From the IMG/VR virus record IMGVR_UViG_3300040801_004793, positions 57,017-121,016 of that record: a DNA stretch of 64,000 nt; one strand, written 5' to 3'. The translations under genes were made by a program, and so were the position numbers. Shown here one piece after another: positions 7,898 to 64,000 of the stretch (the first letter of the stretch is position 1; the number at the start of each line of letters is the position of its first letter). The DNA comes from a virus. The notes below the pieces were generated by a model. It was not told where the DNA came from. It did not search any database and saw only the letters and a program-made list of their open reading frames with translations.

Positions 7898-7909
7898 TAA
7901 AGAATAAAT

Positions 7910-8341: not shown

Positions 8342-8360
8342 AATTTTTTTGTGTTAGTTA

Positions 8361-9227: not shown

Positions 9228-9228
9228 T

Positions 9229-10442: not shown

Positions 10443-10443
10443 T

Positions 10444-37756: not shown

Positions 37757-37762
37757 ACGGTA

Positions 37763-47946: not shown

Positions 47947-48252
47947 ATGAATAAAAGTGAACTGACCCGAGTGCTTTACACTCTGATTAACAAGAACGTT
48001 TCTGGTGGTTACATTACTCTTAATGGAGCAGCTTCCGTTCTGGAAGATCTTGTGGATACTGTTTTTGCCAGCGTAAAAGATGGTGGAGAAGTGAGACTGC
48101 CTAAACTAGGTAAGCTTTATACTACTCAGTGTGCCGGACGTACTATTCCCCACCCTCATATTGAAGGTCAAGCATTGCAAGTGCCTCCGTTTAAACAGAT
48201 TCAGTTTAAAGCTTTTGATAGCGCTAAGAAAGTTCTTAACAGCAGAGACTAA
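47947..48252 (+). CDS. HU/IHF-family DNA-binding protein
   Basis: MNKSEL, G.EVRLPKLGK, R...HP..G....VP....I.FKA....K..LN. Confidence 0.85.
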   Translation: MNKSELTRVLYTLINKNVSGGYITLNGAASVLEDLVDTVFASVKDGGEVRLPKLGKLYTTQCAGRTIPHPHIEGQALQVPPFKQIQFKAFDSAKKVLNSRD

Positions 48253-50972
48253 TTAAATAGATCTCTTAATGTTCGAACGCTATTAGCATTAACAACTGAT
48301 CTAGAAGGCTTGGAGAAATCTCTAATTGGGGTTTCTCCTTTTTTATGTTCTGATAATAGATTCGAGTTTGGCCTTTCTACCCGGTTGTTTAGATTTCCAT
48401 AAGATTGGTCAAGTAGTTGTCTTATATGATTCTCGTTAATTATCATTGAGGAGACATTAGATGCCTTATAAGCAAACCAGTTTAAAGCTTGAGACGTTGC
48501 ATCTACCGCGTCGTCATACTTTGCTTTAGGAAAGCTAACTAATTCATGTATATACTTTTCTACCCAGTCAAATAGATTGGTAGATGGAATATAAATGTTA
48601 CCCGCTTCAAAATCTACAGAGCAAGCAGAAAGTCTTACTGTTTTATCTCCCCCGCCTATTTCTCTAGGTTCAATTCCAATTAAACCGGGAATTTCTTTTT
48701 TTAGAACATCTAGAGCTGCTCGGCCATTAGCTTTATCCTCTACAAGAACACTGCGGGTCATAGGCCACTTAGCTCTTAGATTGCGAATAGCTTGAATCTG
48801 ATTTGTAAAAACCCATTTACCAGAAACTTGATCTAGTAGAAACTTGTCTGTTCCTTTTTTACCCCACACTTGTCCACAGGTGTAATCTCCAGTATCCCCA
48901 AAAGAAAGATCCCAGGATTGAATTACCATATCGAAATTTCTAAGAGTATGTATATTAAAGGGAACTGCGTAGTGTTTAATCCAGTCTCTTTTTATAATTC
49001 CACCTTCTTTAGCAGCAGGCCTTTGTTGGTACTGTGCAGCATAACCATAGCTACCTAATTCCCTTTTAAGTCTTTTAACTTCATACTCGGGAAATCTTTC
49101 AGGCCATAAAATCTCGCCTTCTTTTTGCCGTGGATCTTTCCATCCTATACTAGTGAAGTATTTTACAGGTTCATATTCCATTGGTAGAGAAACAACTTCC
49201 CAACTCTCACTATCGTTCTCTCGAATAAAACCAATCAAGTCTTCATCGGATAATCTTTGGTGCATAACTACTCTACGGCTGTCAGGGGAATTTTTACGAG
49301 AAGTCATTGTTCCTGTCCACCACTCAATTACGGCTTGAATTGCAGGTTTCGAGTTTATTTCTTTTGGTTTGTGAGGGTCATCTACAATAAGAATGTCATA
49401 GCCCTCACCAACGGCTCGGCCTGAGATAGAAGTTGCAATACGATAGCCGTTGGATGTGTTCTCATATTTACTCTTTTGATTTGAACCTGGTTTGAGTGCA
49501 ACAAGTTTACCCCAATTTTTTTGAAACCAAGGAGACTCTATTAGCTGTCTACTCTTCACCGAGTCTCTTACAGCTAGAGAATCTCCATGAGCACAGGTAA
49601 TAAACTTTAGTGCAGGTTTCTGTATCCAGCTCCACACAGGAAAAGCAATGTTGATAATAGAACTGTTATGAGTAGGTATGAGATTTTTTCCGCAGAGATA
49701 CATTCCGTCTTCTGCTTCTACTGTGATACAGTTTCCAATTTCCCAGTCTTCTTCGGGAAGGTATTCAATTTTCTTAAAACCAATTTTAGGCTGAAGACAT
49801 AAACGAGATATTTTCTTTCGTGGTATAGCTGTTGGAAAAGGAATTGTTGGTTGGAAAGCTAGAGTGTAGACTTTTAGTTTTCCTTGAATGTTCCAGTTTC
49901 CGTAGTTATTTATAGAAGGTTCTGCTTCATAGATATGCGGTCTTTGTCCTAGAGACAGAAGAATCTCATAGGCTCCCTCTATGATTTGCCAGTTAGTATT
50001 TACAATGCGTACTCTATCTCTTGCCCCTACATGACCATCAGAATCAATGAGTCCAGCTATTAATTCACATCTCTGTTCTATAGAAGAATGAATATAAATT
50101 TCTGGTATGTGTTTGTTTCCCCAAACATTTAGCTCTTTAAGTTTTCGCGGTAGATCCTGATGTCCGAAGTAACTATCTATTGCATCAACCCCTTTGTTTT
50201 GATTCGAAGTTACGGAGAAACCTAACTCGGCTAATCTTTCTATAGACTGAAGATCAGCTGCGTGGTGTGTAATTCTAGGAGCTTTGCTATGTCCGTCTCC
50301 TAGCCATAGACCTAAAAAGTAAGGATGAAGAGGAAGATTTGCAGAGGGTTTTTCTAGAGCACTAATGTTAGGTAATTGGAATCTACTTCTATCTTGATTA
50401 GACTGATTCCATAAATCTATTAGTGTTTTAGTATCATAATTTTTTACGGTGTTTCTATGTCTGTATCTATCATATACAGCCCAAATATGATCTTCATTAC
50501 ACTTAATAGATTCTCCATTGGTAAAGGTAATTAGAATATTGGCAACATCATTCGGGTGTCTACTAATTACTTTTGTGGTGTTTCCTGAAGAGTGATAAAC
50601 TAAGTCTCCTTCTTTTAGTTGACCATGTGTAGTCCAGCCTTGAGGAGTTAGTATAGGTGTGCTACTAGCTAATAGTTTAGAGTGTCTAGGTGGACATTCA
50701 AAAATAATGTTTTGTATGTCTCCATGAAAGACAGCTTCTAGATGTTCGCAGATACATTGAAGATGCCAGTTACCTAAAAAAGGAACCGTTTCAAAAACAT
50801 CCCAGGAGTTTTGATAGAAATGGTATAGACTTTTTTGACTGTTTTCTACGGCTTCTTCTGTAAGCATACTTTGAAGTAAAGAAGAAGTTTCTTCATACTC
50901 TTCCATTAGTGTTTGAAGTTGAAGTTGTAAGTCTAATGCAGCCTTTGTAAGGGAAGGGTCTGAAAAGTTCAT
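48249..50972 (-). CDS. terL: Terminase large subunit, intein-containing
   Basis: PPRHSK|S Walker A, G.G.DILIVDDP Walker B, QR...DL.G, AQYQQ.P, SWD, VEDKANG and FP....DD.VDA.SQAL. Confidence 0.95.
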   Translation of the reverse strand: MNFSDPSLTKAALDLQLQLQTLMEEYEETSSLLQSMLTEEAVENSQKSLYHFYQNSWDVFETVPFLGNWHLQCICEHLEAVFHGDIQNIIFECPPRHSKLLASSTPILTPQGWTTHGQLKEGDLVYHSSGNTTKVISRHPNDVANILITFTNGESIKCNEDHIWAVYDRYRHRNTVKNYDTKTLIDLWNQSNQDRSRFQLPNISALEKPSANLPLHPYFLGLWLGDGHSKAPRITHHAADLQSIERLAELGFSVTSNQNKGVDAIDSYFGHQDLPRKLKELNVWGNKHIPEIYIHSSIEQRCELIAGLIDSDGHVGARDRVRIVNTNWQIIEGAYEILLSLGQRPHIYEAEPSINNYGNWNIQGKLKVYTLAFQPTIPFPTAIPRKKISRLCLQPKIGFKKIEYLPEEDWEIGNCITVEAEDGMYLCGKNLIPTHNSSIINIAFPVWSWIQKPALKFITCAHGDSLAVRDSVKSRQLIESPWFQKNWGKLVALKPGSNQKSKYENTSNGYRIATSISGRAVGEGYDILIVDDPHKPKEINSKPAIQAVIEWWTGTMTSRKNSPDSRRVVMHQRLSDEDLIGFIRENDSESWEVVSLPMEYEPVKYFTSIGWKDPRQKEGEILWPERFPEYEVKRLKRELGSYGYAAQYQQRPAAKEGGIIKRDWIKHYAVPFNIHTLRNFDMVIQSWDLSFGDTGDYTCGQVWGKKGTDKFLLDQVSGKWVFTNQIQAIRNLRAKWPMTRSVLVEDKANGRAALDVLKKEIPGLIGIEPREIGGGDKTVRLSACSVDFEAGNIYIPSTNLFDWVEKYIHELVSFPKAKYDDAVDATSQALNWFAYKASNVSSMIINENHIRQLLDQSYGNLNNRVERPNSNLLSEHKKGETPIRDFSKPSRSVVNANSVRTLRDLFN
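49665..50675 (-). mobile_element. Intein (337 aa) with LAGLIDADG homing endonuclease, class-3 signature
   Basis: Starts LLASSTPILTPQGW, ends IPTHN|S. LGLWLGDG and IAGLIDSDG motifs; DHIW / NCITV / PTHN. Confidence 0.9.
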
Positions 50973-51020
50973 GGGGTTATATTTGCTAGAATAAGAATGA
51001 ATTTATTCTTATAATAACAG

Positions 51021-53195
51021 ATGTCCCCTAATCCATTACAAAATACAAATCTTGGTTCTGAATTAGTGAAGTATTTACCTTTTCCTCTCTTTGTAAAAAA
51101 CGTAAAAGGTAAATACGTTTACTTAAATCCTATACTTTTGGAACAAGCGAATAAAAATCTTAAGGATTTCCTAGATAGAGGAGATGAAGCTTTAGATAGA
51201 GACTCTCTGAGATGGTTAGCAAATGATCTTCGAGTCTTAGAAACAGAAGAGAGTATTCAAAAAGACTTTATCATTAAAGGTAAAAGCTATACAGTTATTA
51301 AGTTTGCTTTTAGAGATAGAAATGGTGATAAGTTTTTAGCTGGTTTTGCCATTGATCATAGTGATTCAGTAAAAGCTTTACATCAGCTTTCTATTTTTAA
51401 GAAGATCATTTTTTCTATGCATGATAGTTTAATGGTAGTCACTAATAGAAAAAATGGTAACTATCCTATATCTTATATAAACAAGTCCTTTACAGAGCTA
51501 ACACATTATAACTTCTCGGATATTCATCGAAAGTCTTACACTCTATTACAGGGGATAGATACAGATTCTTCTGTAATAGCAAATATAAATAGAACTCTTC
51601 TTTCTGAGATTGATGGTAGTTTTGTTTGTCAGTTGTACAGAAAGGATCGTACCTCTTTTTGGGCTCATTTAAAGATACTTCCTATTTATATAGATAGTAC
51701 GGATAAAGTGGGTTTTTTTGTTTTTCTGATAAGAGATATTAGTGAGGTTTTAGGTAAGAGAGAAGCTTTAGAAGCTAGTGAGAGAAGATACTCCAGTATT
51801 GTAGAAGATCAAACAGATTTAGTTTGTAGGTTTAGTTCTACGGGTTCTCTCACTTACTGTAATAGAGCTTTTAAAGATTTCTTTGGTTTAAAAGAGGATT
51901 CTACTGAATCTTTAAATTTTTATGATCTACTTAGTAAGGAAAGTCAAGAAACTATTGATGTATTAAAGAACAGCATTGACTTTCATACACCCGTAGTAAC
52001 ACATACACAAAAGACTTCTAATAAAGTAATTTCTTGGGTAATTAAGGGTCTGTATCATACCAAAAGTCAGAAGTTATTTGAGTATCAATGTATTGGTAGA
52101 GATATTACAGATTTACAGGAAACTCAACTAGCTTTAAGTAGCTTTGAAGAAAAGTATAAATCTATTTATCATAATACTCCTGCTCTATTACAGAGTCTTG
52201 ATGAGAATGGAATTATTGAAAAAGTGTCCAATCACTGGTTAAAGGTGTTGGGATATGAGTATCACGATGTTGTGGGTAAGAGTTTCTCTATCTTTTTAGA
52301 TGCTGAAAGTAGGCATAAGTTTAATAACGAAATTTGGCCTACTTATAAAAGAGAAGGTGAATGTCTTAATGTGGAATTGAGGGTATTAGATAAACATAGT
52401 AAATTACGTACTTTTCTAGTTTCCTTTGTACATAATGGAGAACTCGGTACGGTTACTAGTGTTTTATCTGATATTGATGAATTGCAAGAGACTAAGAATC
52501 GTTTGATAAAGAGCCAAAAACAATTTTCTACTCTGTTTTATAACAGTTATAGTTTATTAGTTTTATTAGATAGCTCAGGTAAGATACGAGATCTAAATAA
52601 TAGATTTTCTAGTGTATTTGGTGTAGAAAAAAAATCGGTATTACATACGATTTTGTGGGAAGCCTTTTGGTTAAAGTTGAATGAACAAAATCGAGAGTCT
52701 CTAGAAAAAAACTTTAAATACTCTGTAGCTGTAGAAAACGAACCTCAAACTTTTGAATTAGAGACTACGAATAAAGATGGTAGAGATCTTGTTTTAGATG
52801 TCACAATTAAGTCTATACGAGATCATTCGGGTAATGTTAGTTATGTCATATTTGAAGCTCGTGATATAACTTCTACTAAATTAAAGAATAAATCTTTAGA
52901 GAGTCACGCTAAGTTAGGTAAGGCTTTAGAAAATAAATTTCAAGTTTCAAAAAGAAAAGACTATGCTTCTTTAAATGAAGAGCAGATGGAAGAGCTTCTA
53001 CAAAACATCCTTACAAATAAAGCTCGTAGATTAATAGGTATACTTTGGCAAAGCATACCTAAAAAGAACGTTATTCTATTTCTAGGTCTTGTTTTAGCAG
53101 GTAGTCTTTTAGGTAATGGTCTGGTAAATGATATATACCAAGTGATTACTAATCCTATCTCAGTCTTTGAGAGAAACGTGGAACCTAAGAATTAG
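51021..53195 (+). CDS. Multi-PAS/PAC sensor-like protein with C-terminal hydrophobic helix and no output domain
   Basis: About five PAS repeats ending DHS/RDIS/RDIT/SDID/RDIT; C-terminal NVILFLGLVLAGSLLGNGLV. Confidence 0.85.
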   Translation: MSPNPLQNTNLGSELVKYLPFPLFVKNVKGKYVYLNPILLEQANKNLKDFLDRGDEALDRDSLRWLANDLRVLETEESIQKDFIIKGKSYTVIKFAFRDRNGDKFLAGFAIDHSDSVKALHQLSIFKKIIFSMHDSLMVVTNRKNGNYPISYINKSFTELTHYNFSDIHRKSYTLLQGIDTDSSVIANINRTLLSEIDGSFVCQLYRKDRTSFWAHLKILPIYIDSTDKVGFFVFLIRDISEVLGKREALEASERRYSSIVEDQTDLVCRFSSTGSLTYCNRAFKDFFGLKEDSTESLNFYDLLSKESQETIDVLKNSIDFHTPVVTHTQKTSNKVISWVIKGLYHTKSQKLFEYQCIGRDITDLQETQLALSSFEEKYKSIYHNTPALLQSLDENGIIEKVSNHWLKVLGYEYHDVVGKSFSIFLDAESRHKFNNEIWPTYKREGECLNVELRVLDKHSKLRTFLVSFVHNGELGTVTSVLSDIDELQETKNRLIKSQKQFSTLFYNSYSLLVLLDSSGKIRDLNNRFSSVFGVEKKSVLHTILWEAFWLKLNEQNRESLEKNFKYSVAVENEPQTFELETTNKDGRDLVLDVTIKSIRDHSGNVSYVIFEARDITSTKLKNKSLESHAKLGKALENKFQVSKRKDYASLNEEQMEELLQNILTNKARRLIGILWQSIPKKNVILFLGLVLAGSLLGNGLVNDIYQVITNPISVFERNVEPKN

Positions 53196-53859
53196 ACTTA
53201 ATTTCTTCTAATTGTTTTTTAATAACTTCTATATTCTTAGCGTTTTGTTCTCTTTTTTCAATAAGTTTAGAGATACGCTTTTCTCTTTGAAGGGCCTCTT
53301 CTGGATCATTAGAGTTGCCAATAAAGATCTCTTCAGCCAGAGACTTGTAAGCTTCAGCATCTCCATGTAGAGGTTCTCCTACGGTACGCCTAACAAGAAT
53401 TTGAGCTTTATCGAGAGTCTCTACTAGACTTTTAAGTTCATGAACTTTGATTGCTGGTAGAGACTCCCTATCTTCTTCTGATAGATCACGAATAGACACT
53501 GTTCCATCTGGATTAGACTCAAGAATATCGTACTGGTCAAAGAAAGCTTCTATAAGCCGATACATCTTTTTCATAGCAATGATCGTCATAGCGTCAAAAT
53601 GAGCGCTATCGGATATGTAACTATGTAGTGTGTTTTGAGCTGTCTTTTCTTTTAGTTTGGCTTGTAGGGCCTCACGTCTACTACTCCAACGCTCTTTCTG
53701 GCCTTTCTTACGTAGGTAGTCTAAATTCATACCATACTTCTTGTGAAGATCCTCATATGTGGGATACCAGTGTTTCTTGGTAAACGTTTCGGGATCTGTC
53801 ACAAAATAGCCAGTGATGTATTCGGTTGCTATCTGTTCCCAGGGATATTTCTCGTTCAT
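53185..53859 (-). CDS. Putative terminase small subunit
   Basis: W..I..EYI.G, DL..KYG, LR....KE.W...R HTH-type N-terminus; helical C-terminus; upstream of terL. Confidence 0.6.
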   Translation of the reverse strand: MNEKYPWEQIATEYITGYFVTDPETFTKKHWYPTYEDLHKKYGMNLDYLRKKGQKERWSSRREALQAKLKEKTAQNTLHSYISDSAHFDAMTIIAMKKMYRLIEAFFDQYDILESNPDGTVSIRDLSEEDRESLPAIKVHELKSLVETLDKAQILVRRTVGEPLHGDAEAYKSLAEEIFIGNSNDPEEALQREKRISKLIEKREQNAKNIEVIKKQLEEIKSNS

Positions 53860-54249: not shown

Positions 54250-54492
54250 TAGGATGTGGTCCTTAATTTAAGGTGTACTTAAACATTCTAACATGATGAA
54301 AAAATGTATCACAGTGGTATAGGGTGACTTGTGTAGGGTAGTGATAGCAGGTAGTGAGGTAGTGAGAGAGAGCAGTATAAGAAGGGTAGGGTAGGAAGAA
54401 GGCTAGTTTTGGTAAATGGTGGAGAGAATGGTTTGTAGTCATAGAACACCCTCCATCCCATATACCGCAAGCGATCCAGCCATTTTTCGCGG

Positions 54493-54501
54493 TGTTATAC
54501 T
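54493..54501 (+). promoter_or_regulatory. Extended -10 promoter at the start of the GC-rich gene array
   Basis: TGTTATACT; no clear -35. Confidence 0.5.
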
Positions 54502-54656
54502 GTGTTCAACAGGGAGAGAAATATCCCGCTCGGTTGAGACCTATCGGTTTCCTGAGTCCCGAATAGTAAACCGCCTATATAGAGGGAAGGAACCTCTATC
54601 GGCAAACTACTATAAAGGACTCAGGAAATCCAAACCACATAATTGAGGATCAAATC

Positions 54657-55508
54657 ATGACAACTTCAATGTTAGCGCTCCGTAAAACGGAGCTTAACCC
54701 CGATATGGTTGCCGCCTTTAACGAAGGCAAGCTGATTGGCTACGCTACCACCGCTAGCGGCAATTTTAAGGGTGCTGCCGTGGGGAAGTTACACCGGGCA
54801 CTTAATAGCACGCTACCCCAAAGGGTCAAGCCGTTTAGTCACAGTGTCAACTGTGACACCCTCCCGGTGTCCTTGAGTGCTGGGGTGTCGTATCGCCTCG
54901 CCCTGGAATTTAAGGTGGAATCTGTCAGCGATACAAGCGAGGGCGCGGGCTTTAGCTTTAGCCTCCTCTATCGGCCTAATCAGGCTAAAGATCAGGGTAC
55001 CCTAGTGCGGGAACTCACCCGCCATGGTTATCCCGTTGAGGGTACCTTGAAAGTCTCCGTTTCCAATCTTGATAGTCCGTTCCCGAATTATTCGGCTCAG
55101 CTATCCGACACGGAATCGGTCGATAATACGTCGGAAACTAAGTTGGCACAATGGGTCAAAGTCCTGACCCCCATGGCAGAAAAGATCTACGATAAGGCGC
55201 TAGGGGTGACCCTAGCGCTCCCCTTAATGGAGTTCTATCTCGGGGGAACCATGTCTCTCAAAACCGTGTCTAAACTGGCATGGTCCGTATTCGTAGCGCG
55301 GTATAGCCGCGAAAGCCCTAATATTTTCCTAACTACGGAGGCCGCATATACAATGTGTTCCCTGCTAGGACGATTCCTAGCTACGTCCCCTTACTCTAGC
55401 GTCGAGCCTACACGGGCTCTCGTTAGTACCCTAGAAGTCGATTGGGACTTCCTCACAAAATACAGCTATTCGTTGGATGAAAATACGGACGAATTCGAGG
55501 TAATGTAA
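54657..55508 (+). CDS. hypothetical (putative early) protein
   Basis: 283-aa ORF with GAGG RBS. Confidence 0.7.
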   Translation: MTTSMLALRKTELNPDMVAAFNEGKLIGYATTASGNFKGAAVGKLHRALNSTLPQRVKPFSHSVNCDTLPVSLSAGVSYRLALEFKVESVSDTSEGAGFSFSLLYRPNQAKDQGTLVRELTRHGYPVEGTLKVSVSNLDSPFPNYSAQLSDTESVDNTSETKLAQWVKVLTPMAEKIYDKALGVTLALPLMEFYLGGTMSLKTVSKLAWSVFVARYSRESPNIFLTTEAAYTMCSLLGRFLATSPYSSVEPTRALVSTLEVDWDFLTKYSYSLDENTDEFEVM

Positions 55509-55583
55509 TCTATACCGGGGGGGTTACTAACCCGGTAAAACCACAGTAACCATAACTAAGTAGAGTGTAGGGGGGAGGCTACG

Positions 55584-56276
55584 ATGGACCCGATTCATTT
55601 TAATCACTTAAGCTGTGAACAAATCACAGCAGCTACAGACCGAATTGTGGTCTATCGCAGCACCGCTAAGGTGGAATGGCTTGAACTTCATGCCGTACGG
55701 TCCCCCTATGGGGATGTTACAGGGTGGACCGTCACTAGACACAAATCCTGTGCTTTGACTCTGGAGACCGATAGTACCGGAATCCATAAAGGGTATGGCG
55801 AGGAGCCTACCTTAGATCATCGGGGTTACCTGACCCATAGTGCCAATATAGGAACCATTAAGGATGGGTTCCCGTTTGAACCATCATCCGACTATTTTTC
55901 CTTCTCCGATCGGGAAAATGCCTGGATTCCCGGTTGCCTTGGCAGAGCCCGGTCTGCCTTAGCTGAAGGCACCCTGTTTATAGCCGTCGAAGGCCATGGG
56001 GCTATGATCGGCTCCGTAGCCTATCAGTATCTCACGGGCATGATGCCCAAAGGGTCCGAGTCCATAGCCTTAACCCGTGCTATCGGGAAGGCACGTAAGC
56101 TAGAGCCTATTCCCGGCTCCGTAGACTGCCCTCTATACCACTATCGGGGTAGGGTAGCTACCGGCTCCAAGATCCCGAAACGGGATCTGCTAATCTATAA
56201 GCTGGCTCAGGATGAGTCGGTCTGGGGATTTTATATTCCCCAGGGAATAAATTTTGCCCGCAAGCGTAGGCGTTAA
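55584..56276 (+). CDS. hypothetical (putative early) protein
   Basis: 230-aa ORF with GGAGG RBS. Confidence 0.7.
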   Translation: MDPIHFNHLSCEQITAATDRIVVYRSTAKVEWLELHAVRSPYGDVTGWTVTRHKSCALTLETDSTGIHKGYGEEPTLDHRGYLTHSANIGTIKDGFPFEPSSDYFSFSDRENAWIPGCLGRARSALAEGTLFIAVEGHGAMIGSVAYQYLTGMMPKGSESIALTRAIGKARKLEPIPGSVDCPLYHYRGRVATGSKIPKRDLLIYKLAQDESVWGFYIPQGINFARKRRR

Positions 56277-56305
56277 CGCTGCGGGATCGTATTCTATATT
56301 TTTTC

Positions 56306-56333
56306 CCGAAGGAATTTCTTCGGTATTTTTTTT
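56306..56333 (+). terminator. Intrinsic terminator
   Basis: CCGAAG-gaattt-CTTCGG followed by TATTTTTTTT. Confidence 0.7.
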
Positions 56334-56412
56334 GTCTCTGAAAGTCTGCATTTTTATGTAGGCTCTTTTTTTGTACCCTTTTAGGGGGTGTCAAAAAAAC
56401 TGAGAGAGACAC

Positions 56413-56509
56413 GGGTTAAGAAATTCTCCCTGGTGACAGTACCTAAAAATTTCTTTTCGTAACACACTTTTGGGCTGGCATCCCGATATCACTGCTAGGA
56501 GAAACCATG
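56413..56509 (+). repeat. About 95-bp leader repeat, copy 1
   Basis: Highly similar to 63465-63558; 25-nt identical core agtacctaaaaatttcttttcgtaa. Confidence 0.9.
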
Positions 56510-56761
56510 GAATCTAACACCACGTTCAAGAAAGTTGTCGGTGAAGGGAAAGGGGGGTGGATCCCCTACTCCACCCTGTCCTGCAACGGACAAACCCGGG
56601 AGGGTGCCCAACTGTGGGTACCCATATCACAGTACGGGAGGGACTACTGGGATCTTACCCAGGCCCTCGACTACGGGGGAGTCCTCCTTTCGGAGGAGGA
56701 CACCATGGCGGCCCTAGCCGTTGGGGAGGGTTCCCCAGTCACAGGGGGTAACCTGTATTAG
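56507..56761 (+). CDS. hypothetical protein
   Basis: AGGAG RBS within the leader repeat. Confidence 0.65.
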   Translation: MESNTTFKKVVGEGKGGWIPYSTLSCNGQTREGAQLWVPISQYGRDYWDLTQALDYGGVLLSEEDTMAALAVGEGSPVTGGNLY

Positions 56762-56835
56762 ACCCCCAAACACAACTAGGGGTACTGTTCACGAGAGCAC
56801 GGCAGTACCCACACCTCACACACTGTAAAACATAC

Positions 56836-56863
56836 TAGGGGAGCGCCCCATACAGCGCAGGAG
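56836..56863 (+). promoter_or_regulatory. Start-associated pseudoknot/RBS element
   Basis: taggggagcgccccatacagcgcaggag. Confidence 0.8.
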
Positions 56864-56868
56864 AAATC

Positions 56869-57504
56869 ATGGGTTGGTTAATGCAGCGATCTGTTACTGT
56901 CGATGGGTTGAAAGTGGAGCTAGATTCCGTCAACTCGACGGATATAGAGGGAGGGACAGCACCTCCCCAGCCAAAGGTTTTCGTAGTAGAAGCACCCCTC
57001 CCCATGGGGCTAAATGACCACAAAGGATTTATTCTCTGCAAGGTAGGAGATGAATTACTATACTCCTACGGCCCCCGCCGGGAGGTGATAGAAGTGGTCG
57101 CCTTTGCATTTGAAGGTGACTGCCAGTGGACTCCCGTTGACGTTTGGAAGAAGCGCTGGGATCTTGCTAGATTCGTGGTCCCTTTGGGCCATGAATATTT
57201 TGAAGACGAGGAGTACGGAGAGTGGGTCCAAGGCGACTACAAGGGGATTGAGTTTATCCCCTCACCCGAAAAGGAGGGAAGACGTGCACGATATGTTCGA
57301 TGGGTCTGCACGGGATACCGTCAGGACGAAGGGTACTGGTGCCCTTGGGATGAAGCAGGGGCACACCCTTGCCAATGGGAAGACGTTGTTGCCCTGGTTG
57401 CGGACAAAAGGGGCGGGAAGCATCCCTTCGCTATCGCGGAGGCAGTGACAGTCCTCCCTGAGGGAGACTGCACGTTTTTGGAGGGAGTTGAGGCCGTCGC
57501 TTGA
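56869..57504 (+). CDS. hypothetical protein
   Basis: 211 aa, preceded by the element. Confidence 0.7.
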   Translation: MGWLMQRSVTVDGLKVELDSVNSTDIEGGTAPPQPKVFVVEAPLPMGLNDHKGFILCKVGDELLYSYGPRREVIEVVAFAFEGDCQWTPVDVWKKRWDLARFVVPLGHEYFEDEEYGEWVQGDYKGIEFIPSPEKEGRRARYVRWVCTGYRQDEGYWCPWDEAGAHPCQWEDVVALVADKRGGKHPFAIAEAVTVLPEGDCTFLEGVEAVA

Positions 57505-57568
57505 CCCTTTTTCACTAACCCCACACCCCCGCCCTGGCTCACTACCGGGGCACCTCACACATAAACTT

Positions 57569-57598
57569 TAGGGACGCGCCCCCGTAATAGCGCAGAGG
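57569..57598 (+). promoter_or_regulatory. Start-associated pseudoknot/RBS element
   Basis: tagggacgcgcccccgtaatagcgcagagg. Confidence 0.8.
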
Positions 57599-57603
57599 AT
57601 AGG

Positions 57604-58110
57604 ATGGAAAATACTTTAACCAAGCTGCAACTTCGACGCTATTCCGTTCAAGAAGTGAAAAGCCTATTGAACCTAAACGGATTCTCCAACGGGCAGCATT
57701 ACGCTGCCTGGAGCAAGGTCAAAATGGACTCCGTAGACTGGAATTTTGCGGAAGAGGCGATGCGATGCTTTGAGTCCATTGACCCATCTACGCTTGATGG
57801 GATGGAGGATCTGCTCCGCTTTATGAAAAGGGGTGGGCGAGAATCCTGCTCCGCCATATCCCTTGTTAAGGGAGCGAGTTCGTTTTCTGTTCGGGTGGCT
57901 CCTAGCATCGCCACCGGGCGGCTTGATGACACCGCATGGACTTCCGTATCCACCTGCTGGGATGCGGGACAGTACAGCCTCGCATTTGCCCAATTGGGCA
58001 CTAAGGGCAGCGCACCTTGGGGCTGCGTCTGCTCCCAAGTGCGGTTTATCCGTTTAGGCAATACCCCGGAATTAAGTCACAAGGCCGTAGACATCATGCG
58101 TACGGCTTAG
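57604..58110 (+). CDS. hypothetical protein
   Basis: 168 aa, preceded by the element. Confidence 0.7.
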   Translation: MENTLTKLQLRRYSVQEVKSLLNLNGFSNGQHYAAWSKVKMDSVDWNFAEEAMRCFESIDPSTLDGMEDLLRFMKRGGRESCSAISLVKGASSFSVRVAPSIATGRLDDTAWTSVSTCWDAGQYSLAFAQLGTKGSAPWGCVCSQVRFIRLGNTPELSHKAVDIMRTA

Positions 58111-58165
58111 CCTCGCATCCCACCTCCGCTCGGGCTAACCACTGGGGCTTTTTGCACCAAAACTC

Positions 58166-58193
58166 TAGGGGAGCGCCCCTTACAGCGCAGGAG
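58166..58193 (+). promoter_or_regulatory. Start-associated pseudoknot/RBS element
   Basis: taggggagcgccccttacagcgcaggag. Confidence 0.8.
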
Positions 58194-58198
58194 AAATC

Positions 58199-58537
58199 AT
58201 GACCATTCGTATCGTTCACGCATTACCAAACTCTTGGTTCCCCATACCGGGGGCTAAGGTGACCATGGCGGGGTTGACCGCTGCACAGGTTTCCGAAATC
58301 TGTCATCGGCATGAGGTCATTTCACACGTCAGGTACCCGGATCATGCCGAGAATATCAGCAAGGAACTGGGGGTTGACCTCCCAGTAGGAGTTGAAAACG
58401 CCCCGTCCCCTGCTGGTAGTGCTGACACGTTTATCGTGGCTTCCCGTCGCTTTGATGGGGGCATTGATTACGTCCATGTCTGGGACGCAAATCCGGACTA
58501 TGCAGAACTTGAGTTTCTGCATGAACAATCATTTTAA
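58199..58537 (+). CDS. hypothetical protein
   Basis: 112 aa; ISHVRYPDHA..IS..LGV.LP is reminiscent of DUF1874/STIV B116-like proteins. Confidence 0.65.
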   Translation: MTIRIVHALPNSWFPIPGAKVTMAGLTAAQVSEICHRHEVISHVRYPDHAENISKELGVDLPVGVENAPSPAGSADTFIVASRRFDGGIDYVHVWDANPDYAELEFLHEQSF

Positions 58538-58543
58538 GGGGAC

Positions 58544-58999
58544 ATGGATATAGACTTAGAGTGGCTTGCTAGACTTAGCGAAGCTATAGAGGCCTGGCAC
58601 ACCTCGGGAAACCAAGAGACAGAGTGGATTGAAGTGTCGCTCTGGACTGACCCCCCACAAGAGTTTCTAGATTACGAGCAGTTGTGTCTAAAAGGGGGTC
58701 TGGGGTCTCTTTTGGATTATGGAAGCGGGTGCGACCTCTTGGAAAATTTTCAGGATTGTTTAGCCCAGAGCCTAGATCCTTCACAGGGTTGGAGATTTAA
58801 GCTAGCCGTTGCTCTTAACTCCCTATCTTGGGAACAACGGTACCGGACTGGCAAAAAACCATTCATCTGGGAATATATAGCCCGGACCTCTTATAAGCAA
58901 ACACCAGAAGAGTGTGAAAAATTTCTCCGGCAATTTTGCATCTCTGTAGGAGAGTGGCAAAAAGATGACCGTGGGAACTTCTGTGAAATTGCTTATTAA
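58544..58999 (+). CDS. hypothetical protein
   Basis: 151 aa, coupled to the previous gene. Confidence 0.65.
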   Translation: MDIDLEWLARLSEAIEAWHTSGNQETEWIEVSLWTDPPQEFLDYEQLCLKGGLGSLLDYGSGCDLLENFQDCLAQSLDPSQGWRFKLAVALNSLSWEQRYRTGKKPFIWEYIARTSYKQTPEECEKFLRQFCISVGEWQKDDRGNFCEIAY

Positions 59000-59042
59000 G
59001 ACAGAGTACCTCCACGCCCAGACTAACCCCCATAAAAAACAT

Positions 59043-59070
59043 AAGGGTCGCGCCCTGTACAGCGCGGAGG
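59043..59070 (+). promoter_or_regulatory. Start-associated pseudoknot/RBS element
   Basis: aagggtcgcgccctgtacagcgcggagg. Confidence 0.8.
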
Positions 59071-59075
59071 ATAAC

Positions 59076-59912
59076 ATGACTTCAGTGTGTGCATTCAAGA
59101 TACAGTACGAAAAAGTGTCGAACAACACCGCCCGCTGGGTGAAATCCAGCTTTGAAGAGGCGGAGTATATCGAAGCCGAGACCAACCACCCCGACGGGAT
59201 ACACTCGTCTTGCGCCGTTCGGCGTATAGATGAGGAAACCCGGCGCTTTCTCATCAAACACCGGGAGGGCAGACAGTTAGGTCGGGTTTCCTACGTATCC
59301 CTTTGCAGAAAGATAACTGCAAGGGAGTTAACAGAGGATCAAATACCTCTGTTAATTCGACGATGTATGAAAGCGAAAGGCCTTGAGGCCGTACGTCGAT
59401 ACGGCAGCAATAACAAGTATGTCCTCGACTGGGGATACGACGTAATGGCCGGATTAGAAGTGGAACCTCTAATCGAGTCATCTCCACTGCCGGACCTCCG
59501 GCCAAAGCTATTTGAAAAGACGAAAAAGGGCTTTACGTTTAAGGCTCCAAAGGGGTGTACCCATCCCAAGAATCTGGAGCATCTACCGAATTGGCTTACA
59601 GTAAAGGTAGAGCCTTACAATAGTCTGTCAGATTATGTGACGGAACTAACTATCAAGAAGCCCATCACTCCAGGGCTAGTCGAGGAGCTTAATAAACTTG
59701 CTAAGGAGGTCGATCACTCTTTGAGGAATAGTGATCGACGGATTGCGGGGGAGGACGTGCTCATGTGCTCCACCCTCTACTTTATTTACAAAAGTGCCAT
59801 GTTTAGTGTCTCTAAAGCTCTAGACCTGGCGCTTAAAGATACAAAAGGCGATGTTAGCAAGGCTACCGCCTTATTAAACTCGGGTACGCCGCCCGATTAT
59901 CGCGTCGATTAA
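59076..59912 (+). CDS. hypothetical protein
   Basis: Start reassigned to the ATG at 59076 after the element and GGAGG. Confidence 0.7.
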   Translation: MTSVCAFKIQYEKVSNNTARWVKSSFEEAEYIEAETNHPDGIHSSCAVRRIDEETRRFLIKHREGRQLGRVSYVSLCRKITARELTEDQIPLLIRRCMKAKGLEAVRRYGSNNKYVLDWGYDVMAGLEVEPLIESSPLPDLRPKLFEKTKKGFTFKAPKGCTHPKNLEHLPNWLTVKVEPYNSLSDYVTELTIKKPITPGLVEELNKLAKEVDHSLRNSDRRIAGEDVLMCSTLYFIYKSAMFSVSKALDLALKDTKGDVSKATALLNSGTPPDYRVD

Positions 59913-59958
59913 TCTAGTTGACCCCCCGGCTAACCACTGGGGCATCTCACAACAACTT

Positions 59959-59988
59959 TAGGGGAGCGCCCCCGTAAGAGCGCGGAGA
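59959..59988 (+). promoter_or_regulatory. Start-associated pseudoknot/RBS element
   Basis: taggggagcgcccccgtaagagcgcggaga. Confidence 0.8.
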
Positions 59989-59994
59989 GTCACA

Positions 59995-60237
59995 GTGTTT
60001 GAATCCTTCGAAACTTTTATCGCCCAAGTAAACGAATGCTTTCCGGGCGCAGAGTGCATTATGTACTCCCCCGGTTTGTACATCGGAAGGCGGCAGGGGG
60101 TCGAAATTAGATACGACGAGGACGGCTGGTACGCCGAACTTGTAGGAGTCGGTGGGAAGGGGGACACTCTAGAGTTGGCGATTGCCGATTCTATTGCAGT
60201 GTCCGAAGAACACTGGCAAGCGCAGCAAGACCGTTAA
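59995..60237 (+). CDS. hypothetical protein
   Basis: 80 aa, GTG start after the element. Confidence 0.65.
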   Translation: MFESFETFIAQVNECFPGAECIMYSPGLYIGRRQGVEIRYDEDGWYAELVGVGGKGDTLELAIADSIAVSEEHWQAQQDR

Positions 60238-60312
60238 CCTTAAGTCAGTTTGCACCCGCCCCGGTGGTTTGCAGGGGCTTTTTGTGGGCAGTACCCACAC
60301 GTCACGTAAAAA

Positions 60313-60341
60313 TAAGGGATGCGCCCCGTACAGCGCAGGAG
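60313..60341 (+). promoter_or_regulatory. Start-associated pseudoknot/RBS element
   Basis: taagggatgcgccccgtacagcgcaggag. Confidence 0.8.
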
Positions 60342-60346
60342 ATGAA

Positions 60347-60995
60347 ATGGAAAGAGTCAAGGGGTACGTTATTGGCCCTCGGGTTAATCTTCAGGGGGCC
60401 AACCTGGAGGAGGCTAACCTTCGGGATTCTGACCTTTGGGAGGCTAACCTTCGGGGGGCCAACCTCCTAAAGGCCAAACTTCAGCTGGCTATCCTTCGGG
60501 AAGCTGACCTTAGGAGGGTCAATCTTCAGGAGGCCAAACTTCAGGGGGGCTGACCTTCAGGAGGCAAATCTTCAGGGGGCTGACCTAATGCAGGCGGATC
60601 TGATCGGGGCGGACCTGCGCCATGCCAACCTGCGGGGGGCCAACCTGGTGGGCGCTGACCTGAGAAGGACCAGACTTCTGGGGGCGAATCTGAAAGGTGC
60701 AACCGGGATTAAGGAGGTTCCTCGGTCCCCCATCCCCGGCCTAGCCCAACAAGTGCTAGAGCAAATTACACAGAATCCCGAGTCTCTGAACCAAAAAGTT
60801 TGGCACTCATCCTGCGGAACTGCCCACTGCACGGCAGGGTGGACTGTGGTTTTATCTGGCCCAATCGGGCTAGCCGCAGAAAAACGGCTCGGGACAAGGG
60901 GAGCCGCCGAAATTCTACTGGGTGGATCTAATCACCCATTTGGGATCTACGATGATCCCATCCCTTGGTTGAAAGAGATGGCAGCCAATTCGTAG
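60347..60995 (+). pseudogene. Pentapeptide-repeat protein split by a +1 frameshift in a G6 run (60544-60549)
   Basis: A[ND]Lxx repeats on both sides; removing one G fuses the two frames. C-terminal WH..CGTAHC.AGW motif. Confidence 0.75.
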
Positions 60996-61033
60996 GTCAA
61001 TTAATAGTCAGCCGGGAATTTTTGCACCACCAC

Positions 61034-61061
61034 TAGGGACGCGCCCTGTACAGCGTGGAGG
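61034..61061 (+). promoter_or_regulatory. Start-associated pseudoknot/RBS element
   Basis: tagggacgcgccctgtacagcgtggagg. Confidence 0.8.
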
Positions 61062-61066
61062 ACGAG

Positions 61067-61495
61067 ATGGAAACGACAGTAGCCAAAATACTGAAAGGGG
61101 AGATCAAGGGTTATTTCTTGCCTCTCCATTCAGAATGTGAAGAAGGCATCCTCATCTACTCGGAGGGCCTGCGGGGGATCAACAAAATGGCTCTCATAGC
61201 AGCAGCCAAGGGTAATCTTCGTCACCCTACATCATGCTCAAGAATGAGGGTTCTACTTGAATCCGGGAAAGAACAAGTCCGGGTCTACTCTGGCTGGGAG
61301 GCAGCCCAGTCGGACGCTAATATTTGGGGGTCTTTCAAAAAAGAGTGTTACTTAGTAGCCTCTACAAGGGTAGCAGGAGGCGCAGGACTCACCTATTGGA
61401 AGGGAGGTCGTCCCCAAGGATCGGGGGGAAGCACTTTTGTTCTTAGCACATACCAAAGGCGTGACGGGAGCCTCAGAACAAAAGTCCTATATTAG
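61067..61495 (+). CDS. hypothetical protein
   Basis: Start reassigned to the ATG at 61067. Confidence 0.65.
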   Translation: METTVAKILKGEIKGYFLPLHSECEEGILIYSEGLRGINKMALIAAAKGNLRHPTSCSRMRVLLESGKEQVRVYSGWEAAQSDANIWGSFKKECYLVASTRVAGGAGLTYWKGGRPQGSGGSTFVLSTYQRRDGSLRTKVLY

Positions 61496-61560
61496 TTCAT
61501 CCCGTAGCAATGCTTACCCCCGACCTGGTTAATCACAGAACATTTCGAATCGTAGAATCA

Positions 61561-61588
61561 TAGGGACGCGCCCTGTACAGCGCGGAGG
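61561..61588 (+). promoter_or_regulatory. Start-associated pseudoknot/RBS element
   Basis: tagggacgcgccctgtacagcgcggagg. Confidence 0.8.
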
Positions 61589-61593
61589 ATGAG

Positions 61594-61815
61594 ATGATGG
61601 AAAGATTAGACCTTGGCGACAACGTTGGCGAAAGATGTACCGACCCTGGGTGGTATGTGGAGATTCAGTACACAAAAGACCAGGATGACGAGTGTTACAT
61701 CTTCTACTCCGAAGATGGGGTGGTGAGTTACAACCTCAACGATTACCAGTTTTTGGGTCCATTCGACTCAGAGCAGGAAGCTCTTTTCGTGAAAAAGAGA
61801 CATTACCCTGAATGA
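61594..61815 (+). CDS. hypothetical protein
   Basis: 73 aa; GWY...GPFDSE.EAL motif seen in small phage proteins. Confidence 0.65.
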   Translation: MMERLDLGDNVGERCTDPGWYVEIQYTKDQDDECYIFYSEDGVVSYNLNDYQFLGPFDSEQEALFVKKRHYPE

Positions 61816-61848
61816 GTACCGCGCCCCCACAAGATCGAGGAGGATAGC

Positions 61849-62133
61849 ATGGACGAAGTAAAAGCGGGAATGTACGAGCTGATGATGGGGACATCACAAA
61901 CTGGGACACAAGCCCGCCGACTGATACGTTATCAAAAGGTTTCAAACATGCTTGTGTGGTGTAATTACACCAATGCCCAGTTTGAAAACGACAAGGTAAG
62001 GGTGTGGCCTTCGCCCCAAGGATTGAGTGTTGTGTTTCCAGGGAACAGCCAGGTTTTTGGCCTCATAGAGGTTGAAGCCTGGGAAGAGTTCATGGTCGAG
62101 TTAGAAAGCTGCTTGCCTTCTCTCTGGCCCTAG
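61849..62133 (+). CDS. hypothetical protein
   Basis: GGAGG RBS with a degenerate element upstream. Confidence 0.65.
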   Translation: MDEVKAGMYELMMGTSQTGTQARRLIRYQKVSNMLVWCNYTNAQFENDKVRVWPSPQGLSVVFPGNSQVFGLIEVEAWEEFMVELESCLPSLWP

Positions 62134-62236
62134 GCAGTCTCAACACCCACCCCGCCCCAGGGATTAGTCGGGGCTTTTGTCAATATTAAGGCGTTAGCGC
62201 AGACAGCCTTTAAGCGCCGTTAGTCCACGAGATGGC

Positions 62237-62551
62237 TTGGAAAGGTATATGGTTTTCGCAAGACACATTAACAAAATCGCACATCGGTCCGGCTACGCTT
62301 GCCAGATTGATGAGTTACCCAGCGATAGCAATTTAGTAGTGATTGAGGAGGATGACACAGGACGCATCCTCAAGGGACCGAGCGGCAAAATATATGAGCA
62401 CATCTACGCAGGTAAGCGTAGACGTTCTCCGGGTTTGCCGCCTAACCCCGAACAGTTTTTCCTCCTCATCCCTGAGGAGGTGATGGGTGTAATGATGGGC
62501 ATGATGCCCAAACGGTCATCCCTGGCCGTTAAATACGGCTACCAGAAATAA
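62237..62551 (+). CDS. hypothetical protein
   Basis: 104-aa ORF; start uncertain. Confidence 0.55.
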   Translation: MERYMVFARHINKIAHRSGYACQIDELPSDSNLVVIEEDDTGRILKGPSGKIYEHIYAGKRRRSPGLPPNPEQFFLLIPEEVMGVMMGMMPKRSSLAVKYGYQK

Positions 62552-62565
62552 TCGGAGAGCTGAAA

Positions 62566-63189
62566 ATGAGAAATCTGATTGTGACTAAAGAAAATCGTCA
62601 GCCTCTTGAGGGCGGGCGCGTTTCGTTCGGTGAGCAATATTTTAGCTGCCGTGGTGGTAGCTACCGCACGTATGAGGTGCGCCTGTCTGCCAAAGCAGCA
62701 GCTTATCTTGAGGACGGAGATGAGTTGCGATGGTGGGACGGCCCCAGCGAGTTGCCGTACATTGCGTGTGGGGGCGAGATCATCAAAGCTGATGGTCGTC
62801 GCATTCAGCTTAGAGGTAGCCGTGATGTTGGGATCGACACAGGCCACCCGCCTCGTTTAACCCTAAAAATGAGAAGTCGCAGGGGAGTCACCTGGGAATG
62901 GGATGGAAAGGGTGGAAGATCCTATCAGGCTGTCAAAGCGCCCTGGGGAACGTGGTACAAATTTGACCACTGTCCGCCCGGTATTTGGGGTGTTAAATCC
63001 CACGAAGAATTCATGACATGGGCAACAAACGCCCAAGTCTTTGATGGGAAGACCGAGTACATCTCGTCGAATCGCAGACTGCATCTAGTTACCCGCCCCA
63101 AAGATCAGGAGGGTTGGATTTCCGGTTCGCTGACACCTCAAATAAAGGTGATTGGCGACATCGCCACTGATGAGCCTTTGATACTGTAG
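62566..63189 (+). CDS. hypothetical protein
   Basis: 207 aa, GGAG RBS. Confidence 0.65.
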   Translation: MRNLIVTKENRQPLEGGRVSFGEQYFSCRGGSYRTYEVRLSAKAAAYLEDGDELRWWDGPSELPYIACGGEIIKADGRRIQLRGSRDVGIDTGHPPRLTLKMRSRRGVTWEWDGKGGRSYQAVKAPWGTWYKFDHCPPGIWGVKSHEEFMTWATNAQVFDGKTEYISSNRRLHLVTRPKDQEGWISGSLTPQIKVIGDIATDEPLIL

Positions 63190-63231
63190 CAAACGCATAG
63201 CTTGACAGCCCTGTACATTGCGGAGGATAAA

Positions 63232-63414
63232 GTGACAGTCTATCTAGTTCAAGAATGGGACACGGAACCCATGCTGCTGAAAATCCTAAGCAGCATGGAC
63301 GGTGCTGTTGACTATGCAAAGTCACTGGCACAAACAGAAAACAATAGCTGGTTTTCTGTCACCGCCTGGACTATAGACGGTGAGGAGGGGGATATGATTT
63401 ACAGGAGTTGTTGA
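63232..63414 (+). CDS. hypothetical protein
   Basis: GTG start reassigned after the degenerate element gccctgtacattgcggagg. Confidence 0.6.
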   Translation: MTVYLVQEWDTEPMLLKILSSMDGAVDYAKSLAQTENNSWFSVTAWTIDGEEGDMIYRSC

Positions 63415-63464
63415 CACCCCACCCCATCTAATCAATGGGGCGTCTAATCTTTTGTGACTAGCAT

Positions 63465-63558
63465 GGGTTAAGAAGTTATCCCTGGTAATAGTACCTAAAA
63501 ATTTCTTTTCGTAATACACCTTTGGGTTAGTACCCCGTATAGTACTGGAGAAAAAATG
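63465..63558 (+). repeat. About 95-bp leader repeat, copy 2
   Basis: Similar to 56413-56509. Confidence 0.9.
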
Positions 63559-63978: not shown

Positions 63979-64000
63979 GGAGTAACTAAAAGGAGCCCTA

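Follow-up and report, generated by a model that had tools for sequence, protein, structure and literature searches.

The window analyzed here comprises 64,000 nucleotides, bases 57017-121016 of the 121,016-bp virus record IMGVR_UViG_3300040801_004793, and the subject of this report is a plus-strand gene in it that encodes a multi-PAS protein of 724 aa beside the gene of the large terminase subunit (TerL). The gene starts with an ATG that is conserved in its ortholog P0001. It is very probable that this is a real and maintained phage gene, that its product is a cytoplasmic array of five PAS domains with one C-terminal hydrophobic tether and no catalytic or DNA-binding output, and that it belongs to a small family found beside relatives of this TerL, in which the LOV signature was lost in the pair formed by the window protein and P0001. 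Its maintenance was indicated by an open reading frame (ORF) of 724 codons in DNA of 31% GC, by the full-length ortholog and by a conservation that was patterned rather than uniform.

The phage origin of the gene, claimed in an initial annotation made from the sequence alone, was supported by the content of the record. IMG/VR classes it among records with direct terminal repeats, and an overlap of 117 bp between its ends was confirmed. Besides TerL, this tailed-phage genome (39.3% GC) encodes a major capsid protein (MCP; phrog_29, E 1e-24), a head protein of 1325 aa that is the probable portal (Phage_Mu_F was the sole family matched), PolA, a class II ribonucleotide reductase (RNR), a ThyX with an intein, a DnaB-like helicase and a Dam methylase. 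Ten tRNA genes (three for Arg and one each for Met, Thr, Leu, Pro, Lys, Gly and Asn) lie between genome positions 2451 and 30723, none of them in the window. Searches of the 121-kb genome in six frames returned neither HATPase_c nor a receiver domain (Response_reg) nor a tyrosine integrase, and an Rfam scan of the window gave no match. One DNA run of a microbial-mat metagenome contained 40% of the sampled words of the locus, and no RNA run was among those listed.

Architecture of the 724-residue protein

A Pfam scan of the whole protein returned PAS_9 (E 3e-36), PAS (2e-30), PAS_4, PAS_8 and PAS_3, and the domain limits were taken from a scan in six pieces, with matches listed to E ≤ 1 (Table 1). 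About five tandem PAS domains had been announced for the protein, and this count was upheld. Four of the five domains scored above the Pfam gathering scores and TIGR00229 (sensory_box) matched over four stretches (E 6e-45), while the N-terminal fifth, below threshold in Pfam, was modelled by AlphaFold 2 (AF2) with the beta-beta-alpha-alpha-beta-beta-beta topology of a PAS fold, at a predicted local distance difference test score (pLDDT) of 63-77. This PAS1 domain also aligned to a genuine PAS_4 domain in the cellular kinase L124; against PDB sequences nothing rose above chance (one row at E 0.74, limit E ≤ 1). PAS3 had no match among PDB sequences at E ≤ 0.01. The AF2 model, which was built on a six-sequence alignment, had PAS topology in domains 1-4 with block pLDDT values of 56-88, and its top Foldseek matches were tandem-PAS regulators or sensors, namely Brucella LOV-PAS, PpsR (4hh2), DosP, NifL-NifA (9qq6), FixL and HIF-2a:ARNT.

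Table 1. Coordinates of the multi-PAS gene, its parts and its neighbours in the window.
Feature	Position	Strand	Evidence or remark
Multi-PAS tail-anchored protein gene, 724 aa, stop included	51021..53195	+	ORF list, Pfam multi-PAS matches, colinear ortholog P0001
PAS1, aa 19-112, divergent N-terminal PAS fold	51075..51356	+	PAS_4 E 2.7e-3 (18.3 bits; cut-off 23.1)
PAS2, LOV-derived, aa 135-242	51423..51746	+	PAS_9 over aa 139-242 (E 9e-13 in a scan of this piece alone); PDB and NCBIfam LOV matches
PAS3, aa 255-372	51783..52136	+	Pfam PAS E 5.7e-6; missing from the ~600-aa LOV-type cousins (alignment)
PAS4, aa 377-495	52149..52505	+	Pfam PAS E 2.6e-8; counterpart of the third PAS of the LOV-type cousins (alignment, second BLAST stretch)
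PAS5, aa 501-620	52521..52880	+	Pfam PAS_9 E 5e-10, PAS_4 E 2e-9; weak PDB match to TodS PAS
Predicted helical region, aa 621-680, with conserved HAKLG+ALE motif	52881..53060	+	No known family; AF2 helices at pLDDT <50
Hydrophobic transmembrane-like segment, aa 684-702	53070..53126	+	Kyte-Doolittle 2.23; basic patch KARR..KK before it, 22-aa tail after it
Divergent spacer, 48 bp, from terL start to PAS-gene start	50973..51020	.	Read from the sequence
TerL with LAGLIDADG intein, divergent neighbour of the PAS gene	48249..50972	-	Terminase_6C, LAGLIDADG_3, Hom_end
224-aa ORF, convergent with the PAS gene, 11-bp 3' overlap	53185..53859	-	terS candidate by position

No output domain (HisKA, HATPase, GGDEF, EAL or other) was found in the protein with Pfam, NCBIfam, PHROGs, PADLOC or the PDB, in agreement with its first description as sensor-only. 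The stretch aa 618-724 matched no Pfam family at E ≤ 0.1, a single row at E 0.13 being at chance level; HisKA was absent even at E ≤ 1, and the PDB gave no match. The motif SHAKLG was considered as a vestigial H-box and rejected, since hhalign gave a probability of 1.6% when the C-terminal alignment was compared with a profile of the dimerization and histidine phosphotransfer (DHp) domain, made of 46 DHp regions cut from kinase hits. DNA-binding domains were likewise not detected by Pfam or NCBIfam. In PHROGs the only match was phrog_5982, over the PAS region, and PADLOC returned no defence family at E ≤ 0.001, either for this protein or for the proteins P0234 and P0158 described below. The single C-terminal hydrophobic segment had been correctly recognized in the initial annotation (aa 684-702); the "helical linker" placed before it stood in so far as helices were predicted after PAS5, but these were modelled with a pLDDT below 50.

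The second PAS domain had been described as LOV-like and devoid of the photoactive Cys, and both parts of that description were sustained. All of the motifs quoted for it are present (PISYINKSFTELTHY, LLQGIDTD, YRKDRTSFW and RKSYTLLQ). Its best PDB matches were mostly LOV photoreceptors (YtvA, YF1, PpSB1, phototropin and aureochrome; E 2e-11 and weaker), with PAS domains of EAG/KCNH channels interspersed among them, and in NCBIfam the best matches after the generic S-box were YtvA_fam (E 1e-21) and BluLightHisKinLov. Individual LOV positions were counted on an alignment to YtvA and the columns were then moved to the family alignment; the positions used were C62, R63, Q66, R79, N94, N104 and Q123 of YtvA, which we take to be those of flavin binding and the photocycle. 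The adduct Cys of GXNCRFLQG is absent from PAS2, which reads RKSYTLLQG and has Tyr173 at the place of YtvA Cys62, and P0001 has a Tyr there as well. Five of the remaining positions have also changed (Arg63 to Thr, Arg79 to Asn, Asn94 to Leu, Asn104 to Ala and Gln123 to Ile), Gln66 being the only one kept. In the same columns P0001 retained none of the seven residues, and four LOV-type cousins retained 6-7. PAS2 resembles YtvA-type and short LOV photoreceptors (2mwg, 2pr5, 4gcz and 3sw1) in its fold and in the LLQG, DTD and KD.T.FW motifs, and differs from them in the loss of Cys62 and of the flavin contacts other than Gln66. With six of the seven positions lost, PAS2 is a LOV-derived domain in which neither flavin binding nor a photocycle is expected.

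Relatives in phages and in cellular kinases

Homologs of the window protein were not found at E ≤ 1e-5 in 50,697 phage records. Pattern scans of IMG/VR with the PAS protein gave no homolog, and those with the terS candidate or with the TerL alignment gave no close relative; a scan with the MCP retrieved two fragments (L163 and L164, 67% identity), both of which end before the terL-PAS region. In a scan of one metagenome the matches were saturated with generic PAS domains and did not include the contig of P0232. Among 1.84 billion representatives a single full-length ortholog was found, P0001 (713 aa), the second member of its 90% cluster being P0232. P0001 was 49% identical to the window protein and colinear with it from the start to the transmembrane (TM) segment. 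The conservation was strongest in linker 2 (88%), linker 3 (72%) and PAS1 (65%), followed by PAS4 (57%) and PAS3 (49%), and it fell to 41% in the former LOV domain PAS2, 32% in PAS5 and 17-19% in the TM segment and tail.

Furthermore, four shorter cousins (P0141, P0156, P0158 and P0159; 590-603 aa) were 31-33% identical to the window protein from aa 6 to about aa 280-310. Like the window protein, they have the N-terminal PAS plus LOV-type module, an equivalent of PAS4 as their third PAS, and a basic patch followed by a single strong hydrophobic segment (Kyte-Doolittle 1.61-2.79), a feature thus shared by all six members of the family; the Pfam families matched by the cousins were all PAS. Unlike the window protein, they keep the LOV signature (GxNCRF(L/M)QG, NYKK(D/N)G and the I-beta Gln). 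PAS3 and PAS5 are missing from them, and beyond the TM segment they continue into an alpha/beta domain of roughly 170-200 aa that belongs to no known family and was modelled by AF2 with pLDDT values up to 92. The Atlas look-alikes of this domain, which are leads only and have scores that are uncalibrated for part of a protein, were viral proteins of 161-182 aa, with a GAF label on 44% of the members of one cluster and Phage_holin_T on 12% of those of another. These comparisons showed that the founding module of the family is N-terminal PAS, LOV, PAS, basic patch and TM segment, and that the window protein and P0001 have gained two extra PAS domains and lack the cousins' domain after the TM segment. 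The four cousins look like candidate phage-encoded blue-light receptors, judging from their residues at the LOV positions.

Close relatives of the window TerL apparently share the contigs of three of the five relatives. P0001 is on a Logan contig of 13,736 bp, and TerL P0238 (68% identity) on a contig of the same length and source; the same correspondence was found for P0158 and TerL P0237 (61%) at 129,105 bp (NCBI, Logan) and for P0159 and TerL P0241 (64%) at 141,365 bp (ENA). P0156 (130,259 bp) and P0141 (4.6 kb) were unmatched, as was P0232 (7.3 kb). Other relatives of the window TerL sit on contigs of 120-137 kb. The evidence that the multi-PAS/LOV family belongs to a lineage of 120-141-kb phages is therefore strong but indirect.

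Two further groups of sequences were noted in these searches. Matches to P0158 labelled "Listeria phage" and faecal "Bacteriophage sp." were rejected as phage LOV genes, being short unannotated fragments that cover the LOV core only. The sole match of a LOV-family pattern scan of IMG/VR was a LOV-type domain at positions 10001-10561 of a 146-kb contig of a giant-virus metagenome-assembled genome (MAG; L002), with 31% identity to residues 152-328 of P0158.

The same contiguous module, a PAS_4-type domain followed by a LOV-type domain, turned up in Kapaibacteria, Bacteroidota and Ignavibacteriota MAGs when species-representative genomes were scanned. It stands there in proteins of 788, 1881 and >2775 aa with up to 18 PAS stretches and HisKA; HATPase_c was seen in L083 and L124, the contig of L089 ending shortly after the HisKA of its ORF, and L083 and L089 have a receiver domain. 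The window protein was 25-29% identical to the cellular module over aa 6-250. These giant multi-PAS hybrid histidine kinases (L083, L089, L115 and L124) resemble the phage protein in the two-domain module and in their runs of S-box PAS domains with helical linkers, and differ from it at the C-terminus, where the kinases end in HisKA, with HATPase_c or a receiver, and the phage protein in a helical stretch and one TM segment. Hence, the proposal in the initial annotation that the protein derives from a host sensor input module was supported for its N-terminal pair of domains, whereas an origin from cyanobacterial kinases was not, the nearest sampled cellular homologs being those of the three groups just named.

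In a maximum-likelihood tree of 16 rows with a midpoint root, the six phage-lineage proteins formed one side of a branch with support 100/100, and within them the window protein and P0001 were a 100/100 pair at the end of a branch of length 0.89. The adduct Cys was kept in 7 of the 10 cellular or metagenomic loci covering both domains and in all four cousins, and the loss of the LOV signature is by parsimony placed on the branch to the window protein and P0001. Because the phage rows form a fully supported group and the module is shared with multi-PAS kinases, it was captured from such a kinase long ago and diversified in phages thereafter, rather than picked up recently. A long residence had already been proposed from base composition. 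The conclusion was retained, supported by the six-protein group and by an ortholog that is 49% identical where TerL is 68% identical, but the argument from composition was not: far from being as AT-rich as the phage, the PAS gene has the lowest GC among the 26 ORFs of at least 300 aa (31.3%, with 22% at third codon positions, against 39.3% for the genome).

As for the host, the MCP was closest to those of the Pseudanabaena phages Pam2 and PA-SR01 (31% identity, E 7e-49) and the best E-value of PolA fell on Nodularia phages of 139-145 kb (E 3e-16, 25% identity), while TerL was closest to Porphyromonas and Bacteroides phages (28-32%). Pentapeptide-repeat proteins and FGE-sulfatase paralogs, both of which are encoded in this genome, are common in cyanobacteria. 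The assignment leans toward a filamentous cyanobacterium.

Possible modes of action

The lack of an output domain, the lack of a phage kinase or receiver, the conservation of PAS1 and of the helices between PAS domains, and the tether present in six of six members together point to a PAS adaptor that acts by contact. Our preferred reading, which we hold tentatively and at somewhat less than even chances, is that the window protein is a membrane-tethered, light-blind adaptor that would act through protein contacts by oligomerizing with PAS-containing signalling enzymes. In such a mechanism, the PAS cores and the strongly conserved linker helices would form homo- or hetero-oligomers with these enzymes, the likeliest targets being host multi-PAS histidine kinases or cyclic di-GMP (c-di-GMP) enzymes, the kinds from which the PAS protein descends. 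Host signalling might then be held or diverted during infection, possibly tuned by a small ligand in a remaining PAS pocket. The antisense position of the gene in an apparently late terS-terL-portal string suggests early expression and later silencing, so the protein could be made before late transcription and switched off as late minus-strand transcription crosses its gene.

Acting through protein contacts is usual among the nearest folds, and known systems offer partial parallels to this adaptor. NifL-NifA and PpsR, both among the top structural matches, resemble the window protein in their tandem PAS domains with helical connectors; both regulate by binding partners, the output of the tandem PAS domains being a protein-protein contact. 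PpsR carries a helix-turn-helix (HTH) domain and NifL a GHKL-type domain, and, unlike the window protein, neither system is membrane-anchored or phage-encoded. For phage proteins that contact host signalling enzymes, one report describes a precedent, phage peptides that bind a host diguanylate cyclase (PMC8085984). VqmA-Phage of vibriophage VP882 is a known phage PAS quorum-sensing receptor and, like the window protein, a phage-encoded PAS sensor from a host signalling family (PMC8284805). Unlike the window protein, with its five PAS folds and membrane anchor, VqmA-Phage is soluble and regulates transcription, combining a single PAS with a DNA-binding HTH domain.

Several points weigh against the adaptor. 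A promoter and terminator scan of the 47.5-55 kb interval gave no site assignable to the PAS gene, the sites being fewer than in shuffled sequences. PAS5 and the C-terminus, with its predicted helices, were modelled at pLDDT <50, and the hydrophobic segment of P0001 was borderline (Kyte-Doolittle 1.57). The host signals are split, since MCP and PolA point to cyanophages and the homologs of the PAS module to Ignavibacteriota and Bacteroidota (Fibrobacteres-Chlorobi-Bacteroidetes, FCB, group). Additionally, because the cellular homologs are so distant (25-29% identity), the sequence carries no implication of specific hetero-oligomerization with a present-day host kinase. The roles suggested in the initial annotation, a decoy of host kinases or a timer of lysis or packaging, are conjectural.

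A membrane event, rather than an enzyme, might be what the protein controls. The PAS array would read a cytoplasmic cue such as redox, oxygen or a metabolite and, through the linkers and the TM segment, gate holin/antiholin timing, superinfection exclusion or a block of DNA entry, and the cousins would do likewise with blue light. The TM segment follows the PAS array directly in all six members, the linker helices are the most conserved parts, the gene lies within the packaging and late region, and the cousins carry a folded domain beyond the membrane with its GAF and Phage_holin_T leads. Nevertheless, that domain matched no PHROGs family, holins included, at E ≤ 0.1, and the Atlas scores behind the two leads carry the calibration limit given above; the window protein has just 22 residues past the TM segment, hence no extracytoplasmic domain to act with, and lysis genes were not identified nearby. 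We regard this sensor of membrane events as improbable, although with a share of the probability that should not be neglected.

Lower still stand two further explanations. The PAS protein could be the detached input of the phage enzyme P0234 (655 aa; genome 54090-56057, plus strand, ~1 kb before the window start), which has a GGDEF domain (SGDEF) and an EAL domain (EVL, EITE, DDFGT, EGVE and GQG); it would bind the PAS-like N-terminus of the enzyme and tune c-di-GMP turnover and hence host motility or biofilm state. In that N-terminus PAS_4 matched aa 12-51 below threshold, and PAS_9 matched aa 131-221 at chance level. The two genes are the most AT-rich of the ORFs of at least 300 aa (32.7% GC for that of P0234), which is compatible with a common source, and each protein has exactly one full-length ortholog of about 50% identity (P0355 for P0234, 51%, on a 15-kb contig). 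The genes are ~52 kb apart, however, the proteins share no sequence similarity (E 0.12), and in the length range searched the 129-141-kb contigs with LOV-type cousins yielded no GGDEF-EAL ortholog. Complex prediction for residues 1-680 of the PAS protein together with the P0234 N-terminus scored 0.00, which was taken as no answer and given no weight either way. This pairing is quite unlikely. About equally small is the chance that the gene is a decaying passenger, drifting without function after chromophore loss, as might be read from the low conservation of PAS2, PAS5 and the C-terminus, from the long branch to the two blind copies and from the rarity of the family (one ortholog cluster, and none in the phage records or the IMG/VR pattern scans). 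Against decay, an uninterrupted ORF of 713-724 codons with the same architecture persists in two lineages whose TerL proteins differ by 32%, PAS1 and the linkers are 65-88% identical, and two PAS domains were gained, not lost.

The adaptor reading concerns the window protein itself; a wider proposal, to which we give a chance of roughly one in three or slightly less, takes in the family. Under this proposal the window protein would stand on a blind branch of an undescribed family of phage membrane-anchored photoreceptors, in which the cousins would be true LOV sensors of blue light through which the virus itself sets a membrane event, or the reprogramming of its host, to the daily light cycle of the mat, and the window protein would have swapped light for other PAS ligands while keeping the same downstream contact. 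If true, the family would provide the first light-sensing system found naturally in a bacteriophage, as well as a natural series in which a photoreceptor becomes a sensor of chemicals or of redox state.

It is known that phages take over host regulators. What this phage carries is a signalling protein made of PAS domains only, with a tail anchor and a LOV photoreceptor as its ancestor, and the cousins that look LOV-intact are the more surprising lead. In full-text literature searches no natural phage-encoded LOV protein was found described (the matches were engineering uses, reporters and unrelated mentions), nor was a multi-PAS sensor-only phage protein, and the whole word "PAS" is absent from the text of a jumbo-phage survey (PMC7824862). 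Phage GGDEF-EAL genes as such are not new, since P0234 matches phrog_11823 (E 5e-88). An enzyme-less membrane sensor array in a phage lineage suggests that some phages may read intracellular cues or jam host signalling by contacts, and with their LOV signature the cousins make the existence of light-sensing phages, in mats where diel gradients of light and oxygen are steep, a possibility that can be tested. The Cys-less PAS2 provides a natural example of a photoreceptor domain that was re-used after chromophore loss.

Neighbouring genes and genome setting

The PAS gene had been placed antisense between terS and terL. It is antisense beside terL, but the terS label has no family match behind it: the ORF at 53185-53859 matched nothing in Pfam, PHROGs, NCBIfam or the PDB (PDB limit E ≤ 5). 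Its nearest ESM-Atlas clusters were viral hypothetical proteins, with, at rank 24 and as a lead, one named "putative terminase small subunit" (score 0.94), and its position upstream of terL is compatible with a small terminase. Close relatives of TerL include both intein-bearing (900-1376 aa) and intein-less (about 556-567 aa) forms. The structural genes around the PAS gene are all on the minus strand, so that transcription through them is antisense to it; no ORF of at least 50 aa is listed on the opposite strand within 51021-53184. Two RNA libraries of the same mat sample contained no contig on the PAS gene, which has no bearing on its expression either way.

The divergent spacer holds an 8-bp inverted repeat (ATAAGAAT at 50991-50998 and ATTCTTAT at 51005-51012) and the sequence TATAAT at 51010-51015. 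The scan for sigma-70-like sites scored none within the spacer; the nearest lies on the minus strand at 51097-51070, in the 5' portion of the PAS gene. Two words were examined and discarded. TAnnTTTG, which we take to be the Bacteroidota-type -7 motif, occurs once upstream of the PAS gene and was rejected as a host clue, with no enrichment upstream of genes (6 in 12,400 nt, or 0.48/kb, against 0.55/kb genome-wide). TAGGGG[AG], a word enriched upstream of genes, lies antisense in the first codons of the PAS gene; this occurrence was judged to be chance because the word belongs to a longer element confined to the GC-rich block described below.

A gene for an HU-like DNA-binding protein (window 47947-48252, plus strand) is embedded antisense between terL and the gene of the 1325-aa Mu-F-domain protein. 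It shares 4 bp with the 3' end of terL, and after it, within terL, comes a terminator-like hairpin (48312-48338). The HU-like gene is a second "moron" of the same module as the PAS gene.

Beginning ~1 kb from the PAS gene, a block of ~20 kb with 44-53% GC spans window positions 54300-64000 and genome positions 1-10700. In this block every ORF of at least 200 aa is on the plus strand, and most belong to no family. Genome positions 4557-10715 hold 7 or 8 tandem ORFs of ~245-263 aa, and both of those scanned encode FGE-sulfatase-domain proteins; a pentapeptide-repeat protein is encoded at window 60588-60995. The DNA contigs of run X1 contained both compositions at similar low depth, and among the pieces listed none bridges the boundary, so the assembly may be chimeric. 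Metatranscriptome contigs from the two libraries of the same mat sample matched the window at 100% identity at 54527-55406 and 57111-57270, the first stretch covering an ORF at 54657-55508 (283 aa, no family), and these were the sole RNA-library contigs over the 19 kb examined. A repeated element, (C/T)TAGGGGAGCGCCCC...(A)GCGC(A)GG, occurs on the plus strand of the block at window 56836, 58166 and 59959, 33-36 nt upstream of three plus-strand ORFs, and may be a regulatory site or a hairpin.

Elsewhere in the genome, the ThyX gene at 37265-39001 has an intein with NUMOD4 and HNH domains. In a GC-richer island at genome 32641-36054 (plus strand), a sub-threshold Prok-JAB match (E 9e-5), an uncharacterized protein of 341 aa and a ThiF/E1-like protein with weak PADLOC E1-E2 matches adjoin one another, and these three genes may form a ubiquitin-like conjugation module.

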